Shown here: positions 8,774 to 19,434 of the stretch, piece by piece | How positions within the stretch are numbered: position 1 is the stretch's first letter | Layout of the letters: every line of letters starts with the position of its first letter | From: an uncultured bacterium | Lineage (GTDB): Bacteria; Acidobacteriota; Aminicenantia; Aminicenantales; Saccharicenantaceae | Reading direction: 5' to 3' | Length of the DNA stretch: 64,000 nucleotides | Assembly: GCA_937920515.1 (NCBI GenBank) | Contig: CALEUG010000015.1 | Location: 71,382 to 135,381, forward strand | The notes under the pieces: generated by a model | What the model was told of the DNA's origin: nothing | Databases searched by the model: none | Seen by the model: the letters and a program-made list of their open reading frames with translations, nothing else | Made by a program: the position numbers and the translations under genes

Positions 8774-9325
8774 AAACGGGGGACACAATACTCATTCCCC
8801 AATTTTCAGGAATTGACTTTTGTAATTTATTGAGGCAGGTGCTTATTCACCAGGACAAAAGGAATCTGAAATGGATATTGCCGCCTTGTAATTCTCTCTT
8901 TTCAGCCGGTTCCTTCTCATTGTTAATATCAGGTTTCAGGGAAAATAAAGAAAATAAAAAGGCTCATCAGACATTTTTGCGGGTAAAAACAGGATTTTTT
9001 AAGGCACCGGGTGAGGCCTGAAGCTAAAACAAACAGAAAAGAACCCGGCTGGTCAATTATACGATTGATAAAGCAATTCAGAAGAGCCGGGCTGGATTGC
9101 CTCCGAGAAGCGTTCAGCGCCGGCAGTTTGAACTGGACTGTGAGAATAACAATTATCCAGGTTTGCCCATTAAAATCCTGTAAGCCCCGACAAAAATTTA
9201 CTCTGTGGCACAAGTTTACGTTTCCAGTTCAGCCGGGGCAGAAACTTGTTCAGGTGGAATGGAAATCGAAAAATATGACATTTTTTGATAAAAAAATTGG
9301 GGAATGAGTATTGTGTCCCCCGTTT
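8774..9325. repeat. Perfect 33-bp inverted repeats (8774-8806 / 9293-9325) flanking a ~486-bp AT-rich spacer; MITE-like or long-stem structured element
   Basis: Arm 1 is aaacgggggacacaatactcattccccaatttt; arm 2 (aaaattggggaatgagtattgtgtcccccgttt) is its exact reverse complement. The interior is AT-rich and only weak short ORFs overlap it. The element sits between the amidohydrolase stop and the SAM riboswitch. Confidence 0.6.
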
Positions 9326-9363
9326 CTATGTTCTATAATTGGGGTGGCGCTGGCGTTCTCATC

Positions 9364-9480
9364 CTCTCATCCAGAGAGGCAGAGGGTTAACGCGCCCGAA
9401 GAAGCCCGGCAACCTGCCCCCGGTGGGGCAAGGTGCCAAAAGCGTTGAGTCCTGGCTCCGGTCGGGACGAAAGATGAGAG
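9364..9480 (+). promoter_or_regulatory. SAM-I (S-box) riboswitch aptamer
   Basis: CTCTCATCcAGAGAGGCAGAGGG...GCCCGAAGAAGCCCGGCAACC...AAGGTGCCAAAAGCG...GAAAGATGAGAG matches the S-box consensus: the P1 stem CTCTCATC/GATGAGAG, the kink-turn GA, and the CCCGGCAACC and GGUGCCAA boxes. It lies 190 nt upstream of the MAT start codon. The downstream CUCCUCUC could pair with the 3' strand of P1, suggesting translational control, as there is no U-tract. Confidence 0.85.
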
Positions 9481-9669
9481 GAGTGGGGCGAAAGCGAGCA
9501 TCGCCACCAGGTCCCGCTCCTCTCGAGCAGAAGAGAGGCGCCTCGCCAGAGACAGCGGAGCGGAGACCGCGGTGGGAAGGCTGATCGTAAAGCCGGAATC
9601 ATATTACCTGCCCGAAAACTCCCGCCTGGTATCCGTCCCTGTCAATTCATGGTCTGACTGGAGGTAAGA

Positions 9670-10869
9670 ATGTCTGGATACTATTTTGAGGTCCGCGAGG
9701 GACGGGATTTTCTGGCCGAAGAGATGCCCGTGGAAATCGTGGAGCGCAAGGGCAAGGGGCATCCGGATTCGCTGTGCGACGGCGCGGCCGAAGAACTTTC
9801 GGTGGCTCTGTCTGAAATCTACCGGCAGAAGACAGGTAGAATTCTGCATCATAACGTGGACAAGGCGGTTCTGGTCGGCGGAAGTTCCAGCGCCGGGTTC
9901 GGTGGCGGAAAGGTGATTGAGCCGGCCCTGCTCTACATTGTCGGGCGGGCCACCTGCGAATACAACGGCAAAAGAATAATAGACGACGAGTCTATGAAAT
10001 ACCTTGAAACCAGGATTGCCGGCTGGATGATGGGGCAGGTGCCCCATCTGAGACAGGAACATTTCCAGGTAAAGCTCTTAATCAGGCAGGGCAGCGAGGA
10101 TTTAACCGCAATTTTCGCTGATGACGAAAAAGCGCCGCGGGCTAACGACACTTCCCTGGCCGTTGGCTACTCCCCCCTCAGCCAGCTGGAAACCCTGGTG
10201 CTGGAAACCGAGAAATTCTTGAACAGCCCGGAGGGCAAGCGCAAGTTCCCGGCCCTGGGCGAGGATATAAAGGTCATGGGTGTCCGCAAGGGCCAGTCCA
10301 TAAATCTAACCGTGGCCGCAGCCTTTGTGGCCTCGCTGGTCAAGGACAGGCCGGCTTACGACCTGATGAAAAAGGAAATAGCCGATTTTTTGCGGGCTGA
10401 ATTTGTCCGGCGTTATACATCCCGGCCGGTTGAGGTAATAATAAATAATGCCGATACTCCTGATTCGCAGTATCTAACCGTTACCGGCACCAGCGCCGAG
10501 GCCGGCGACGACGGCCAGGTGGGCCGGGGCAACCGGGCCAACGGGCTGATCACCCCCTACCGGCCGATGAGCCTGGAAGCCGTGGCCGGAAAGAACCCGG
10601 TCAGCCACGTCGGAAAGATTTACAGCATCATGAGCCAGCTGATTGCCGATAGAATAGTTCAGGCCATGCCAGAAGCCAGACAGGTCTATGTCTATATGGT
10701 CAGCCAGATAAACGAACCGATCGACGAGCCGCAGGCCCTCAACGTTGAGCTGTGGGGTCTGGAGGCGGACAGGGTCAGGGCCGAGGTCCGGAAAATTGCC
10801 GACGAAGTGCTGGGAAGCTGGCGTGAAATTCGCGATGGCTTCATGACCCACCGCTGGCCCATCTATTAA
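9670..10869 (+). CDS. Archaeal-type S-adenosylmethionine synthetase (methionine adenosyltransferase, PF01941 type)
   Basis: [53 protein letters not shown] and [51 protein letters not shown] are near-identical to the archaeal MAT signature blocks. A GGAGGT SD precedes the start. Confidence 0.9.
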
Positions 10870-13193
10870 ATAAAGAGGGATTTGAGGGCTTCCACGCCGG
10901 CCAGGCCGCTGTTTACCAGGTAACACCTTACCAGGTCCAGCAGGCGGCTGAAAAACATCCGCTGCATGGCCAGTTTGTCCTCGTTCACCACCAGAAGGTG
11001 CGGGTTAAAAAACGGCTGGGTCCTGGCCGAAAGCGACCTGACCGCGCCCGAAGGCTCCCCGCTTTCCAGGATTCTTAGGGCCTCTTCCTTGCCGAGCTCC
11101 ACCACCGCCGGCGAGACCCGGTCGTTTCGCAGAATCACCAGGCTCTTGAGGTGAGTTCTCCTGGTATAGCCCTGTGGTCCGGCCAGCCAGTTAGGGTCGA
11201 GCATGGCCCGGGCTTCCCCCGAGGCCCGGAAGCAATAGGGCGCGCCCTTGTCCAGCCGGCATTCATCCTGAATCGGGCAGGTGGGGTCGGTGCAGTCCTC
11301 GCGCCTGGTAACCACATTCTCGCACTTGCTGTGGTCAAAAAGCCTGGCCAGCTTATCGTGAAGTTCAACGGTGCTGGTCGGGATGTAGAATTTTCTCTCG
11401 ACGGCGTCGGCCACTGCCCGGTTGCCCGAAAAGCGAACGAATACGATCTCGTTGCTCTGGGCCTGGACTTTCGGCAGCCTGAGCAGGTCAAAAAACAGCT
11501 CGGTCTTTTTCGTCCCGGGTTGCCCCACTAAGAACAGACCGTTTCCGTCCAGCCCGACGGCCATGCCCCGCACTGCATTTATGCCCAGGTGCTCCGAGGA
11601 ATCAAGAACCATGCCCAGGGCCAGTTTCCTCAAAGGCCCGTAATTGTCGGTGTTGACCAGGATGCCCGTCCGGGTCTCCGGGTGGTAATAAGCCCGCGGT
11701 TCTCTGCCCGGCACGTTGTCCACCGCGTAAATCACGGCGTGCGGTTCGAGCCCTGCTTCAATCTGGCCCGGGAACCAGTTTTCCACCCAGAAATCGTAAA
11801 GATGGCCGACGTTGGTCCTGAGCTGGACGATGGTTCCGTTGATGTTGGCGTTCCACTCGTAGTAGTTGTCGTAACCCAGGTGGGCTTCCATCTCGGCCAC
11901 CAGGGCGTCTCTCAGCTTGCCCTCGGCCACCACTTCCACCGGCACCGATTTTTTGACCTTCGTCACGTAATTTTGCAGATAGATTTTCTTAACCTTTTTG
12001 GCCGTCTTAAGCCGGCTCATGGCCTCGGCTATCCGGTCCATTCCCTTTTCCAGGTTTTCCATGGAGGTGGCGTAGGAAATCCGGATGTAATTGTCAGCCC
12101 CGAAAGCGTCTCCGGGAACGATGGCCACCCGGGCTTCCCGCAGCAGGTAATAGGCCAGCCCGTAGGAATTCCTGATCTGAATGCCTCCGGCCTCTTTGCC
12201 GTAGTAGGAACTCACGTTTGGGAACAGGTAAAAAGCGCCCTGGGGCTTGAAGCAGGAAATTCCCGGAATTTGCTGCAGCCTCATCAGCACGTAGTTCCGC
12301 CTTCTCTGGAACTCGGCGGCCATGCGGTTAACTTCATACTGCGGCCCGGCCAGGGCTTCGACGCTGGCTTTCTGCGATATGGAGCAGGCGTTGGAAGTGG
12401 TGTGGCTCTGGATCTTGCTCATGGCGCTGATGATCTCGGCCGGCCCGGCCGCATAGCCTATTCTCCAGCCGGTCATGGAGTAGCTCTTGGAAACGCCGTT
12501 GACAATGATGGTCTTCTTTTTCAGGTCTTCGCCCAGGGAGGCAAAGCTCACAAACTGAAACCCGTCGTAGACCAGGCGGCTGTAGATCTCGTCGGCAATG
12601 ATGTAAATATCTTCTTTGCGGAGGACCTCGGCCAGGGCCAGAAGCTGCTCCCTGGTGTATGTGGCCCCGGTCGGGTTGCTGGGATTGTTCAGAACCAGAG
12701 CCCGGGTCGACGGGGAGATTGCGGCCTTCAGCTGCTCGGGAGTGAGCAAGAAGCCGTCCTCCTCCCGCGTGTCCACTATAACCGGCTTGCCCTTGGCCAG
12801 GTTCACGCACTCGGGATAGGTTACCCAGTATGGGGCCGGGATGATGACCTCGTCGCCTTCGTTGACGATGGCCTGAACCAGGTGGTAAAGGGAGCTCTTG
12901 GCCCCGCTGGAGACCAGGACTTCGTTGGGCTTGTAGTCCAGCCCGTAATCTTCCTTGAGCCTTTTACAGACCGCTTTTCTCAGCTCCGGGATACCGTCGT
13001 TTTCGGTGTACTTGGTGAAATTCTGCTCAATGGCTTTGACCGCCGCCGCCTTGACGTTTTCCGGAGTCGGGAAATCGGGTTCGCCCACGCTTAAATCAAT
13101 AACATCGATGCCCTCGGCCTTCATGGACCTGGCCTTGGCCGAAATCTTTAAGGTGGGAGAAGCTCCTATTTTGATTACTCTTTCTGAAACCAT
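10866..13193 (-). CDS. Fusion protein: class-I PLP aspartate/aromatic aminotransferase (aa 1-~395) plus a ~380-aa C-terminal domain with an HprK/PSRP-like P-loop and a Cys cluster
   Basis: The N-terminal half has SKSYSMTGWRIGY (Lys-PLP region) and the typical AspC layout. The C-terminal half contains RGMAVGLDGNGLFLVGQPGTKKTELFFDLL, which parallels the HprK core ...GVGVLITGDSGxGKSExxLEL, with the second Gly replaced by Lys. It also carries CENVVTRREDCTDPTCPIQDECRLDKGAPYC. The 3' end overlaps the convergent MAT gene by 4 nt. Confidence 0.75.
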   Translation of the reverse strand: MVSERVIKIGASPTLKISAKARSMKAEGIDVIDLSVGEPDFPTPENVKAAAVKAIEQNFTKYTENDGIPELRKAVCKRLKEDYGLDYKPNEVLVSSGAKSSLYHLVQAIVNEGDEVIIPAPYWVTYPECVNLAKGKPVIVDTREEDGFLLTPEQLKAAISPSTRALVLNNPSNPTGATYTREQLLALAEVLRKEDIYIIADEIYSRLVYDGFQFVSFASLGEDLKKKTIIVNGVSKSYSMTGWRIGYAAGPAEIISAMSKIQSHTTSNACSISQKASVEALAGPQYEVNRMAAEFQRRRNYVLMRLQQIPGISCFKPQGAFYLFPNVSSYYGKEAGGIQIRNSYGLAYYLLREARVAIVPGDAFGADNYIRISYATSMENLEKGMDRIAEAMSRLKTAKKVKKIYLQNYVTKVKKSVPVEVVAEGKLRDALVAEMEAHLGYDNYYEWNANINGTIVQLRTNVGHLYDFWVENWFPGQIEAGLEPHAVIYAVDNVPGREPRAYYHPETRTGILVNTDNYGPLRKLALGMVLDSSEHLGINAVRGMAVGLDGNGLFLVGQPGTKKTELFFDLLRLPKVQAQSNEIVFVRFSGNRAVADAVERKFYIPTSTVELHDKLARLFDHSKCENVVTRREDCTDPTCPIQDECRLDKGAPYCFRASGEARAMLDPNWLAGPQGYTRRTHLKSLVILRNDRVSPAVVELGKEEALRILESGEPSGAVRSLSARTQPFFNPHLLVVNEDKLAMQRMFFSRLLDLVRCYLVNSGLAGVEALKSLFI

Positions 13194-13223
13194 GGCTTGC
13201 CTGCTTTTCCGGGATTATTTATT

Positions 13224-14651
13224 CTAGGATTTCTTTTCCTGAGGCTCGGGCCTGGCTTCGGTGGCAGAACCCAGTTTATCCCTCAGAAACCTGGTCAGGT
13301 CGGCCCCGGTCAGGGCCTTGAGCACTTCTGGCATCTGGGCCAGGACCTGGGTTACCTGGCCGGTAATCTGGTTGGTGCCCAGCCCCTTATCGCCTCCAAT
13401 GACCACGATTTTGTCCACCCTGGCCAGCGGTTCAGCCACGGCCCGGGCCAGCTCGGGCAGCACCTTGATGAAGCTTTCCAGCAGGGCGGCTTCGTTGTAC
13501 CTTTCCCAGGCCTGGGCTTTTTTCAGCATGGCCTCGGCCTCGGCCAGTCCGCGCAGCTTTATTTCATCTGCCTTGACCATGGCTTCAAGCTTCATGGCTT
13601 CGGCCTTGCCCTTGCCTTCGGCCATCAGCCGGATTTCTTCGGCCTCGGCTTCGGCCTGGATCTGGTACCTGCGGGCATCAGCCGGCTTCAGGACGTTGGC
13701 TTCCAGTTCTTTTTCCTTGCGTTTGATTTCCAGCTCTTCAATCTTGATGGCCTCTTCCTTTTCAATCTGTTTAACCCTGGCTTCTTCTTTCTTTATCTCC
13801 TGGCTGACCCGGGTGCGTTCCAGCTCATAGGAAAAATCGGCCTGGGCTTTTTTCTGGTTAACGAAGGTCTGGGACTCGGCTTTCTTGGCTTCGTTTTCCC
13901 ACTGGGCCCTGGCAATCTGGGCTTCCGCCTGCAGCCTGGCCACTTCGGCTTCTTTCCTGGCCTGGGACGACTTGATGATGGCTTCTTTCTCGGTTTCGGC
14001 CTGGGCGATGGCCGCATCCCTCTTGGCCGCGGCGATGACCGGCTTGCTCAGGGCGTCGATGTAGCCCTGGGTGTCGCTGATGTCTTTAAGAGAAAAGCTC
14101 AGAAGCACCAGGCCCATGCTGGCAAAATCTTCCTTGGCTGCCTGGACTACCCGTCTGGAAAATTCCTGCCGGCCGCGGTAGATTTCCTCGACCGTCATGG
14201 TCCCGATAACTTCCCGGACCTTGCCCTCCAGGACATTCATGGCCACGTCCCGGATACCTTCCTTGCCAGTGCCCAGGAATTGTTCGGCGGCCAGCCTTAT
14301 GGCCAGGTCGGTGGAATCCACCTTGACCTGGGCCGAGGCTTCGGCCAGGATGGGGATACCGCCGTGGGTCAGGACTTCCGGCGTCTTGATGTAAATGGTA
14401 ATGACTTCGAGGGGCAGGGTGTAGACTTTTTCTATGAACGGCCAGACAAAGGTACCGCCGCCCAGTTTATATCTATAGCCAACTTTCTTTTTCGTGCCGT
14501 CGGGCAGGGTTATGGTTCTCTTACGGCCTCCGGCGATGATCAGGGCTTCGTTCGGCCCGACCTTCCGGTATTGAGTGGCAAGGACCACTCCGATTATGGC
14601 CAGAAAAACGACTACGGCGCCGATAATTATTAGCCAGGTGGTTAAAGGCAT
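13224..14651 (-). CDS. Flotillin / SPFH (band-7) domain protein
   Basis: N-terminal TM segment, an SPFH core, and a long Ala/Glu-rich coiled-coil (EA repeats) characteristic of FloT/YqiK flotillins. Confidence 0.8.
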   Translation of the reverse strand: MPLTTWLIIIGAVVVFLAIIGVVLATQYRKVGPNEALIIAGGRKRTITLPDGTKKKVGYRYKLGGGTFVWPFIEKVYTLPLEVITIYIKTPEVLTHGGIPILAEASAQVKVDSTDLAIRLAAEQFLGTGKEGIRDVAMNVLEGKVREVIGTMTVEEIYRGRQEFSRRVVQAAKEDFASMGLVLLSFSLKDISDTQGYIDALSKPVIAAAKRDAAIAQAETEKEAIIKSSQARKEAEVARLQAEAQIARAQWENEAKKAESQTFVNQKKAQADFSYELERTRVSQEIKKEEARVKQIEKEEAIKIEELEIKRKEKELEANVLKPADARRYQIQAEAEAEEIRLMAEGKGKAEAMKLEAMVKADEIKLRGLAEAEAMLKKAQAWERYNEAALLESFIKVLPELARAVAEPLARVDKIVVIGGDKGLGTNQITGQVTQVLAQMPEVLKALTGADLTRFLRDKLGSATEARPEPQEKKS

Positions 14652-17895: not shown

Positions 17896-18801
17896 TTGTT
17901 AATTAAATCGCGGACCGCTGAGATGAAGCATATTATTATCAGGGATCAATCCTATTTTTTCCCCGCCTCTCTGCTGGTAGTTTTTCTATTTCTCTTGCTG
18001 CCTGGTTGTATCGAGAGGCAGCCGGTCAGAGGGCTGGCGATAAATGCCATTTTTTCAGACCGCGTGCTGACCGATGACCTGGTGACCGGTTTAAAGGTCA
18101 AGTATATCACCACCGCTCATTTCCAGCCTTTCGACCGGAACTACCGGGTTGTGGCCGAGGCGGCCTGGCAGGACAGGATCCTTTTCAGAGAAAACCTTGA
18201 ACCTGAGACGCCCCCTCTTAAATGGCAGGCCAGCCGGGTCTACGAGGTTGAAGAATATATCTACATCCCATCGGTCATAGACCCGTTTGACCGACGGCAG
18301 GCTTCCGGTCTGAGGATAGAATTCAGGATAATTCTGGAAAGTGACCGGGGGAGCGAACCGATTACACTCTATTCCAGGAAAATCAGGTTGCTGCCCCGTC
18401 CGGCTGACTCACCTGATGTCGTTTTCTGGGACGGCTGGAGAAGGGTTATCAGGCTGGCTGCCGGCTCGGGAAGGCCTTTGAGCGAATACTGGACCGGGGA
18501 GAGGGCCGTCTGTCTCCTGAAAAATACGGGTCGGCCGGCCATTCTGATGATAAAAGGAAAAAATTATTCAGACCGGGTCACCGTTTCTCTGTACCTGGAT
18601 GACGGCCTGTTTAACGAGTTCAATCTGGGGCCCGGGGAATTTCGGAAAATATTCACGGCTGGACCTTTCCCGCTGGCCTCCGACCCGGAGTTGCGTTTAA
18701 CAATTGCAGTGGATAAAACCATTCCCCTGAACCAGGTCTACCCGGAGGCCGGGGAAAATCCACAGGTCGGACTTAATATTGAAAAAGTATATTTTCGCTG
18801 A
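17896..18801 (+). CDS. Hypothetical exported/lipoprotein-like protein
   Basis: 301 aa with a hydrophobic N-terminus (LLVVFLFLLLPGC) and no recognisable catalytic motifs. Confidence 0.4.
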   Translation: MLIKSRTAEMKHIIIRDQSYFFPASLLVVFLFLLLPGCIERQPVRGLAINAIFSDRVLTDDLVTGLKVKYITTAHFQPFDRNYRVVAEAAWQDRILFRENLEPETPPLKWQASRVYEVEEYIYIPSVIDPFDRRQASGLRIEFRIILESDRGSEPITLYSRKIRLLPRPADSPDVVFWDGWRRVIRLAAGSGRPLSEYWTGERAVCLLKNTGRPAILMIKGKNYSDRVTVSLYLDDGLFNEFNLGPGEFRKIFTAGPFPLASDPELRLTIAVDKTIPLNQVYPEAGENPQVGLNIEKVYFR

Positions 18802-18810
18802 AGGCAGGTC

Positions 18811-19434
18811 TTACTTAATCCAGATGGGCGAAGCTGATTCGCTCTTCTTGCGGTTGATCTGGTTCTCGTATTGCTGCCGCAGGCGGGTCTCTTCTTCCTG
18901 GGCCCTGGTGAGTTTTTCGTAGGTTTCGCTGATTTGCATCTGGATGTAGTCCTTGGATTTCATGTCGGTCTGGCCGTAGAACTCGGCCCAGAGGGAATTC
19001 AGCTTCAGGGTCAGCAACTCCACGTATTCTTTGGCTTTCTTCCAGGCTTCTTCCAGTGAACCACCGCTCGCATCCTGCTCTCCTGCAGTCCCGGGGAAGA
19101 CACCCCCCGAGCCCTGAGGTGGATTTTCCACGTTAACCCTGTGAACGGTGACGGGAGTGGCTGGCTGTGAACCGGTTACAGGTTGAGAGGCCTGACGGTA
19201 AGTTGTTCCGGCTCCGGTTGTTTCCACGGTTTGAAGGGACAGGGTCAGCGCTTCGGTTTTGGTCAGTTTCTCCAGGTCTTTATTGGTTACGACCCTGACT
19301 TTCTTACCTTTAAGACTTTCCCGCCTTTCCCGCTCTTTCCTGGCCAGCTCGGCCAGGTTTTCCTCCTGCGCCAAAAGCGGGGTTAGTCCCGCGAAGCTTA
19401 AGGACAGAAAAATAGACAATACCTTTTTAAGCAC
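18811..19434 (-). CDS. Hypothetical secreted coiled-coil protein
   Basis: Signal peptide MLKKVLSIFLSLSFAGLTPLLAQEE, a charged coiled-coil N-terminal part and a Pro/Gly/Thr-rich middle. Function unknown. Confidence 0.4.
   Translation of the reverse strand: MLKKVLSIFLSLSFAGLTPLLAQEENLAELARKERERRESLKGKKVRVVTNKDLEKLTKTEALTLSLQTVETTGAGTTYRQASQPVTGSQPATPVTVHRVNVENPPQGSGGVFPGTAGEQDASGGSLEEAWKKAKEYVELLTLKLNSLWAEFYGQTDMKSKDYIQMQISETYEKLTRAQEEETRLRQQYENQINRKKSESASPIWIK

Follow-up and report, generated by a model that had tools for sequence, protein, structure and literature searches.

Can a bacterial S-adenosylmethionine (SAM) riboswitch control a SAM synthetase of the archaeal type, and by which route would its signal reach the gene? 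These questions are raised by a locus in contig CALEUG010000015.1 (assembly GCA_937920515.1; positions 71,382 to 135,381), which derives from an uncultured bacterium of the Saccharicenantaceae (Acidobacteriota; Aminicenantia). This 64,000-nucleotide (nt) stretch is hereafter called the window, and all positions refer to it. In this locus, a SAM-I (S-box) aptamer lies upstream of an open reading frame (ORF) for a methionine adenosyltransferase (MAT). Our analysis makes it highly probable that SAM feeds back on MAT through this leader, with SAM binding and the direction of regulation being predicted. The signal appears to be relayed by a series of strand exchanges in an unusually conserved expression platform.

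The aptamer and its linkage to an archaeal-type MAT

A preliminary description, made from the sequence and its ORFs, had placed a complete S-box aptamer in front of an archaeal-type MAT. A covariance model search bears out the aptamer: the RF00162 model matched 9364-9480 of the + strand over its full length (model positions 1-108 of 108), scoring 58.9 bits (gathering score, 44.4; E 4.5e-11). This was the only match in a gathering-threshold Rfam scan of the whole window, and the aptamers of related loci scored 52.8-64.5 bits. Two-sided compensatory changes were found in P3 and P4 of the aptamer, such as UA/CG at columns 100:109 and CG/UA at columns 134:147 of the RNAalifold alignment. P2 and the pseudoknot are uninformative on covariation because they are invariant.

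The protein encoded downstream matched PF01941 over residues 14-391 with 457.2 bits (cut-off, 27; E 5.8e-137). This was its sole Pfam family at E<=0.01 in a comparison that covered the bacterial MetK models PF00438, PF02772, and PF02773. The protein also passed the NCBIfam model NF003366 'methionine adenosyltransferase' (447.7 bits versus a cut-off of 435; PRK04439 group). Among solved structures, only six chains matched at E<=0.001, with E values from 8.7e-99 (4l4q_A, the best) to 6.1e-92. All six were deposited as S-adenosylmethionine synthase, and we take them to be archaeal enzymes; no bacterial MetK chain was among them. The GHPD and GTSAE.GDDG..GRGNR.NG signature blocks, which had been quoted in favour of the archaeal type, are present in the translation and align with the solved chains. 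Judged from these matches, the ORF is a predicted SAM synthetase of the PF01941 type. The statement that the window contains no canonical metK also held: no PROSITE-type MetK motif was found in the six frames of the 64-kb window, and a tblastn search of the window with Escherichia coli MetK (an approximate query sequence) gave nothing better than a 17-residue match with an E of 0.1.

The claim of archaeal ancestry stands as far as family membership is concerned, but a transfer is not demonstrated. The nearest archaeal-labelled proteins, from Asgard lineages, are approximately 50% identical to the bacterial MATs among the matches listed, and the bacterial MATs form old bacterial clades in a rough neighbour-joining (NJ) tree. 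In the same tree, the riboswitch-bearing MATs fall into one large clade, which comprises lineage groups A, B, and C, and a more distant group D. The label 'archaeal-type' is secure at the level of sequence, whereas a specific recent archaeal donor goes beyond the data. The closest relative noted is a protein from a metagenome-assembled genome (MAG) of Candidatus Saccharicenans (96% identity), and other relatives labelled Saccharicenans or Aminicenantes are 69-92% identical. The window itself is assigned to Candidatus Saccharicenans (Aminicenantes).

The linkage of a bacterial riboswitch to an archaeal-type MAT was confirmed and is kept in relatives. In the window, 189 nt separate the end of the aptamer from the MAT start codon, both being on the + strand. 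RF00162 precedes MAT by 187-192 nt in 20 of the 21 related genome loci, the exception (L017) having only 197 nt of upstream DNA. The aptamer also precedes MAT in L022 (bacterium HR17), L024, and L026 (Armatimonadota), with MAT identities of 53-63%, and the distance between aptamer and MAT over all loci is 170-330 nt. In addition, a metagenome scan with the leader pattern GATGAGAGGAGTGGG-N(15-45)-CCCGCTCCTCTC yielded 45 loci; in all 41 of those whose downstream DNA is long enough, MAT follows at a distance of 172-327 nt. Six PF01941 loci (L028 and L074-L078) are without SAM-I. Some of them have bacterial-looking neighbours, and one (L076) carries an archaeal-type ThrRS editing domain.

Alternative pairings in the expression platform

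The features of the locus are listed in Table 1. The preliminary description had pointed to a segment that could pair with the 3' strand of P1, and this proved correct: CUCCUCUC (9517-9524, within Y+) is complementary to GAGAGGAG (9476-9483). It forms the 3' end of a 14-bp helix between X and Y (9476-9489 with 9511-9524).

Table 1. Features of the MAT leader and gene, with positions in the window
Feature	Position	Strand	Pairing partner or basis
Putative sigma-70 promoter (-35 TTGTGT, 9311-9316; 17-nt spacer; -10 TATAAT, 9334-9339)	9311-9339	+	Read from sequence
F, transcript 5' flank (UGGCGCUGGCGUUCUC)	9345-9360	+	S (helix P0, SAM-free fold); 3' part with 9485-9496 (P1 extension, SAM-bound fold)
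SAM-I (S-box) aptamer; P1 extendable to 10 bp (9362-9371 with 9473-9482)	9364-9480	+	RF00162
X, P1 3' strand and extension (GAGAGGAGUGGGGC)	9476-9489	+	P1 5' strand or Y
Y+ (UCGCCACCAGGUCCCGCUCCUCUC)	9501-9524	+	3' 14 nt (Y) form anti-P1 with X; 9501-9520 with Z+ (SAM-bound fold)
S (GAGAGGCGCCUCGCCA)	9533-9548	+	F (P0, SAM-free fold)
Z+ (GGAGCGGAGACCGCGGUGGGA)	9557-9577	+	Y+ (SAM-bound fold, 18 bp) or W (SAM-free fold)
Variable apical part of the Z+:W hairpin domain	9578-9619	+	Sequence not conserved
W, C-rich strand (UCCCGCC, 9620-9626; UCCGUCCC, 9632-9639)	9620-9643	+	Z+ (SAM-free fold); released in SAM-bound fold
Shine-Dalgarno GGAGG (9660-9664), 5 nt upstream of start codon ATG (9670-9672)	9660-9672	+	
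Archaeal-type methionine adenosyltransferase (SAM synthetase), 399 aa	9670-10869	+	PF01941, NF003366, PDB relatives

Expression platforms are usually poorly conserved and evolve fast. In 21 Aminicenantes leaders, whose MATs are 69-96% identical, positions 9345-9363 and approximately 95 nt past the aptamer (9481-9577) are nearly invariant. The approximately 45 nt after 9577 are free to vary, and W stands out as conserved islands within an otherwise variable stretch. X (GAGAGGAGUGGG), Y (CCCGCUCCUCUC), and the Z core (GCGG..GAC) stay invariant in 39 leaders that span four lineage groups, with MAT identity down to 53%, and the GGAGG Shine-Dalgarno (SD) sequence is invariant in the leader alignments. 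Overall, approximately 230 nt (9345-9577) hardly change while MAT diverges to 53-70% identity, and the likely reason is that every strand must suit two alternative partners. Conservation this strong is unusual for an expression platform and might instead reflect a second sensor in the 95 nt past the aptamer, namely a tandem aptamer, a tRNA-binding element, or a protein-binding element. A dual-input precedent exists in the SAM-I riboswitch of Xanthomonas campestris, which is reported to sense initiator tRNA as well (PMC7270179). However, all of the conserved segments are explained by the two alternative pairings, and the loops (GAAAGCGAGCAUC and GAGCAGAA) differ between groups A and B, which argues against a second aptamer. 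A permissive Rfam scan of 9300-9700 (E<=10) for a second RNA family returned chance matches only; the candidates mir-3569 (22.7 bits versus a gathering score of 50) and SmY in the conserved extension were rejected as such. We therefore regard a second sensor as very improbable.

The unconstrained minimum free energy (MFE) structure of 9345-9690 consists of F:S, X:Y, and Z+:W (-151.2 kcal/mol) and equals the RNAalifold consensus. The F:S duplex has a predicted energy of -20.4 kcal/mol in the window, and cognate F:S duplexes of -22 to -31 kcal/mol are found in all four lineage groups. Their inner pairs differ by group (UUCUC:GAGAG, CUCCC:GGGAG, CUGUC:GGCAG, and GCGCCCC:GGGGCGC); 84% of the alignment cells are paired, and four pairs are changed on both sides. 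Full Y+:Z+ duplexes of 18-22 bp (-28 to -41 kcal/mol) can form in every group, and their distal parts also change by group (CCACC:GGUGG, GCCCGCAAG:CUUGUGAGGGC, GCCCUUACG:CGAAGGGC, and AUGCCC:GGGCAU). Thus, F:S and distal Y+:Z+ covary between lineage groups.

The inner helices were assessed by pairing counts over 38 distinct sequences. The X:Y helix (14 bp, -27.2 kcal/mol) is paired in 99.6% of cells, with 10 invariant pairs and 4 that vary one-sidedly. The core of Y:Z (11 bp and one bulge) is paired in 98.3%, including a U-A to A-U swap in L024, and its sole variable position is the bulged base (A, U, or C). P1 is paired in 96.6% of cells, with seven invariant pairs and two that vary one-sidedly. 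When the partner strand was slid by 1-3 columns as a control, pairing in these three helices dropped to 40-62%.

Folding of growing transcripts yielded the alternative structure. With P1 locked, the MFE structure of transcripts ending at 9570-9630 consists of P1, extended by pairing of F with 9485-9496, and the 18-bp Y+:Z+ helix; for ends at 9580-9600, the same combination is the MFE structure even without constraint. In this SAM-bound fold, the loop enclosed by Y+:Z+ contains a small hairpin, in which GAGA of S pairs with UCUC at 9521-9524. Compared with the fold in which Z is available, blocking the 12-nt Z core destabilises the 3' domain by 7-15 kcal/mol (37 leaders, alignment A2), and blocking the whole of Z+ destabilises it by approximately 5-30 kcal/mol (55 leaders).

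From these foldings, we propose the following switch. In the absence of SAM, X would be captured by Y, the 5' end F would pair with S, and the G-rich Z+ would pair with the C-rich W to form a long hairpin domain. The A/U-rich stretch, GGAGG, and AUG would then be open, so that MAT would be translated. In the presence of SAM, P1 would be locked and lengthened by the pairing of F, and the 9501-9520 part of Y+ would be free as Z+ emerges, allowing the 18-bp Y+:Z+ helix to form. W and the apical region would lose their partner and might refold onto the SD region, so that initiation would drop; loading of Rho on the exposed C-rich RNA may be a secondary effect. The exchange of strands from X:Y to Y+:Z+ and Z+:W probably takes place, as judged from the modelled folds and their conservation.

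Several points weigh against this reading. X, Y, and the Z core scarcely vary, and the true covariation there amounts to one compensatory pair and one-sided changes; therefore, the support for these strands is conserved complementarity and not covariation statistics. In addition, the counts come from related homologues and are thus not independent. Moreover, when the full-length leader is folded with P1 locked (Turner parameters), the structure with Y+:Z+ (-138.5 kcal/mol) is less stable than the MFE structure, in which Z+:W and part of F:S persist (-145.3 kcal/mol). Since this model favours Z+:W by approximately 7 kcal/mol, the SAM-bound fold would need kinetic trapping.

Leaders of group D (L026, L047, L048, L059, and L070) are much longer but keep F:S, X, Y, and Z. 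Z lies 45-75 nt after Y, with approximately 180 nt from Z to the start codon. The SD sequence is weaker (GAGAGG or GGGGGG), and the MATs stand apart from those of groups A-C in the NJ tree.

From the proposed strand exchange to the gene

The preliminary description had noted that the platform lacks a U-tract terminator, and our scan agrees: on the + strand of 9000-11200, no terminator-like hairpin followed by a T run was found, and the sequence after Z+ lacks a U run in every lineage group. The Y+:Z+ helix could nevertheless act as an intrinsic terminator of a non-canonical kind that needs no U-tract. It is very stable, and in both position and logic it corresponds to the terminator of classic S-box leaders, in which the P1 3' strand is followed by an antiterminator and then by the terminator. 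However, the sequence past Z+ is G-rich in all groups, with GCGGUGGG in the helix followed by AAGGCUG, UAGUUGU, or AUGGGUG and never by a U run. The helix also encloses a loop of 27-75 nt, and no site in the + strand scan resembled a terminator. We consider such a terminator distinctly improbable.

Translational control, which had been suggested instead, is plausible but would not act in the simple way implied. The SD sequence lies 135 nt downstream of CUCCUCUC, and direct pairing between the two was rejected since it would comprise only 4 bp (CUCC:GGAG), Z+ being a far better partner of this strand (11-18 bp). The signal would have to cross two further strand exchanges, first Y+:Z+ and then Z+:W. 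When the whole of Z+ was blocked, the predicted SD accessibility fell from 0.35 to 0.05 in the window, and among 55 homologues it was lower in 38 and higher in 3. Between the ON and OFF folds, the accessibility of real leaders differed by 0.18, compared with 0.06 in composition-matched shuffles, and the difference was larger for the real leader in 35 of 50 cases. In the Z+-blocked fold of the window, the SD sequence pairs with UUACCU (9604-9609). In L004, CUACC stands opposite GGUAG, and several group B leaders contain an explicit CCUCC in the released strand.

Other results speak against SD occlusion. With 40 nt of the ORF added, SD accessibility falls in 27 leaders and rises in 7. Blocking the 12-nt Z core alone leaves the SD accessibility in the window unchanged, and the SD changes are inconsistent across leaders. 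W in the group to which the window belongs has no good anti-SD sequence (best match, 4 bp), and the candidate UUACCU, facing AGGUAA (9662-9667), is lineage-specific and weak evidence. Folding the whole leader with P1 forced gave no clear SD difference, because the full-length equilibrium fold keeps Z+:W. Two other candidate contacts were rejected. Pairing of W with the early coding region (CCGUCCC:GGGACGG at +29 in the window; CCCGUCC:GGA(C/U)GGG in group B) was not above background, with a mean z of -0.9 against shuffles, and other intervals of the ORF often pair equally well or better. The best SD complement of the window, formed by the P4 loop and 3' strand (9446-9465; -17.4 kcal/mol), is attributed to chance and, by eye, is not kept in L004, the one homologue compared.

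The C-rich W strand suggests another output. If the W region (approximately 9595-9650) is single-stranded in the SAM-bound fold, Rho could load there and stop transcription before or early in MAT. Between Z+ and the SD sequence, C exceeds G in nearly all of 56 leaders, whereas G exceeds C in the upstream half, and C minus G reaches +10 to +19 in the best 40-nt interval of most leaders. W is paired with Z+ only in the SAM-free fold, and the leader has no intrinsic terminator. Canonical terminator-like sites are barely enriched in the genome segment (27 versus 28.9 expected, 45 versus 31.1, and 41 versus 25.3), and there is a precedent in the E. coli thiC riboswitch, in which ligand binding uncovers a C-rich rut site within the platform (PMC5234074). 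However, the C-richness of W is explained equally well by its role as the complement of the G-rich Z+, the exposed stretch is short (approximately 45-65 nt), and there is no predictable pause or termination site. Rho-dependent termination as the main output is thus a serious candidate but an unlikely one.

A third route would be messenger RNA stability, either through cleavage of the 18-22 bp Y+:Z+ helix by RNase III or through a change in the access of 5'-end-dependent RNases as F moves between S and the X extension. The stability of Y+:Z+ in every group fits the former idea. As for the latter, different sequences maintain P0, which in groups A-C starts within a few nt of the predicted 5' end of the transcript. 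On the other hand, F has a predicted partner in either fold (S in one, 9485-9496 in the other), so the 5' end may never be free; the Y+:Z+ helix contains bulges, and the decay idea is structural speculation. We find this route rather improbable.

Because a U-tract terminator is absent and the predicted SD accessibility is lower in the SAM-bound fold, translational repression is the best model. We rank repression through the relay first and Rho-dependent termination second, with RNA decay and a U-less terminator lower. In the folding models, SD occlusion may be the main output, a tentative choice to which we give slightly less than an even chance. The reading as a whole, namely a SAM-responsive OFF switch that feeds back on SAM synthetase, with translational output through the strand relay, seems to us equally likely to be right or wrong.

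Two translationally acting systems are precedents for this model: the E. coli thiC thiamine pyrophosphate (TPP) riboswitch, which has an anti-P1 stem (PMC5234074), and the SAM-I riboswitch of X. campestris (PMC7270179). In these systems, as reported, the anti-P1 stem represents the ligand-free ON state, an intrinsic terminator does not feature, and the output lies at the ribosome-binding site (RBS), at an exposed C-rich Rho site, or at both; the same is predicted for the MAT leader. The sequestering stem of those systems is reported to adjoin the RBS. In the MAT leader, by contrast, 135 nt lie between the anti-P1 strand and the RBS, and the signal would cross a G-rich/C-rich hairpin domain. 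The thiC riboswitch also differs in ligand class, and no second ligand input is indicated here.

Evolutionary and genomic setting

The MAT leader resembles the classic S-box leaders of metK and methionine genes in Firmicutes (RF00162) in its aptamer and in the regulated function, SAM synthesis. Its switching logic also opens in the same manner, with a downstream helix that competes for the P1 3' strand. Unlike in these leaders, the regulated enzyme belongs to PF01941 and not to the bacterial MetK family. The hairpin and U-tract of terminator-type S-box leaders are absent. The platform, approximately 190 nt long and conserved across phyla, also features F:S as a clamp at the 5' terminus, with Y+:Z+ and Z+:W as two additional exchanges. 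It is in these four respects (enzyme family, absence of a terminator, clamp, and added exchanges together with exceptional cross-phylum conservation) that the system differs from known ones. Compared with archaeal MATs (PF01941; chains 4l4q, 6s81, 7p83, and 4hpv), the enzyme shows a full-length family match and keeps the signature motifs, but it is encoded in a bacterial genome amid ComEC, RNase PH, an HD-domain PAS protein, and sigma-70-like promoters, stands under a bacterial riboswitch, and shares approximately 50% identity with the archaeal members among the matches listed. Our literature search found no paper that pairs an archaeal-type MAT or PF01941 with a riboswitch, or Aminicenantes with a riboswitch, and papers mentioning Saccharicenans looked irrelevant by title and abstract. 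The locus is apparently an undescribed variant of a known system, the sequences themselves being present in public MAGs.

The locus indicates that riboswitch regulons follow function and not homology. The textbook feedback loop from SAM to metK appears to be kept here although the enzyme is of the archaeal-type family, which would make the locus a clean natural case of non-orthologous displacement under an unchanged sensor. In the platform, approximately 95 nt are nearly invariant within a phylum, and core strands are invariant across phyla in which MATs are 53-65% identical. The locus also suggests that the gene and its RNA regulator were co-transferred. A bolder proposal is that promoter, aptamer, five-strand relay, and MAT form one self-regulating cassette that moved as a unit between phyla (Aminicenantes, Armatimonadota/Fervidibacteria, and others) and displaced metK, for which the search covered the 64-kb window. 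In this proposal, the platform would be a distinct, deeply conserved output class of SAM-I with a 5'-terminal clamp and a long ligand-dependent helix, acting through translation and Rho or RNA decay rather than a terminator. We consider it speculative and unlikely to hold in full. The leader also offers a tractable model of a terminator-less, multi-step relay in a SAM-I riboswitch, from uncultivated and partly thermophilic lineages.

MAT forms a single-gene unit. The genes around it are ordinary bacterial genes with no tie to sulfur metabolism: those for an acyltransferase, two amidohydrolases, a flotillin-like protein, a PAS/HD-domain protein, RNase PH, ComEC, and an M20 peptidase. The putative promoter was missed by a consensus scan because its -35 element matches only three of six positions. 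TATAAT lies 5-6 nt before (U/C)GGCG in every leader of groups A and B and 8 nt before GGUG in L024. Because this spacing is fixed across leaders, the transcript probably starts at approximately 9345-9347, as judged from the promoter position. The first 40 kb of the window is enriched in sigma-70-like promoters, but 40-60 kb is not clearly so.

A perfect 33-nt inverted repeat (AAACGGGGGACACAATACTCATTCCCCAATTTT and its complement) was found in this region, with arms at 8774-8806 and 9293-9325, 486 nt apart. These are the only two copies in the window, where none would be expected by chance. The left arm starts 2 nt past the stop codon of the upstream amidohydrolase ORF, and the right arm overlies the -35 element of the MAT promoter. 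Each arm can be folded as GGGGA-12 nt-UCCCC flanked by an A-run and a U-run, resembling a bidirectional terminator. Among relatives, L003 contains both exact copies in an identical layout, and L001 contains an exact upstream copy; in L009 and L010, a copy similar to the left arm sits just past the MAT stop codon instead.

Further into the window, the ORFs at 17896-18801 (+, 301 aa) and 18811-19434 (-, 207 aa) have no significant Pfam family, their best matches (E 0.27 and 0.0037, respectively) being under the cut-offs. The 3' end of MAT overlaps a convergent gene (10866-13193, - strand) by 4 nt. This gene encodes a 775-aa fusion protein with a class I/II aminotransferase domain at residues 30-388 (PF00155). 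A GQPGTKKT motif and a Cys-rich stretch lie in the C-terminal 376 residues, which have no Pfam match even at E<=1. The fusion gene adjoins MAT in 23 Aminicenantes-type loci, that is, in those with enough downstream DNA. A comparison with L009 (Ca. Saccharicenans subterraneus BY38) revealed nucleotide identities of 74-78% over the upstream genes and MAT, which jump to 94.7% over 10873-13565, covering the aminotransferase fusion. This jump suggests a recombination breakpoint at the MAT/aminotransferase boundary (approximately 10870).

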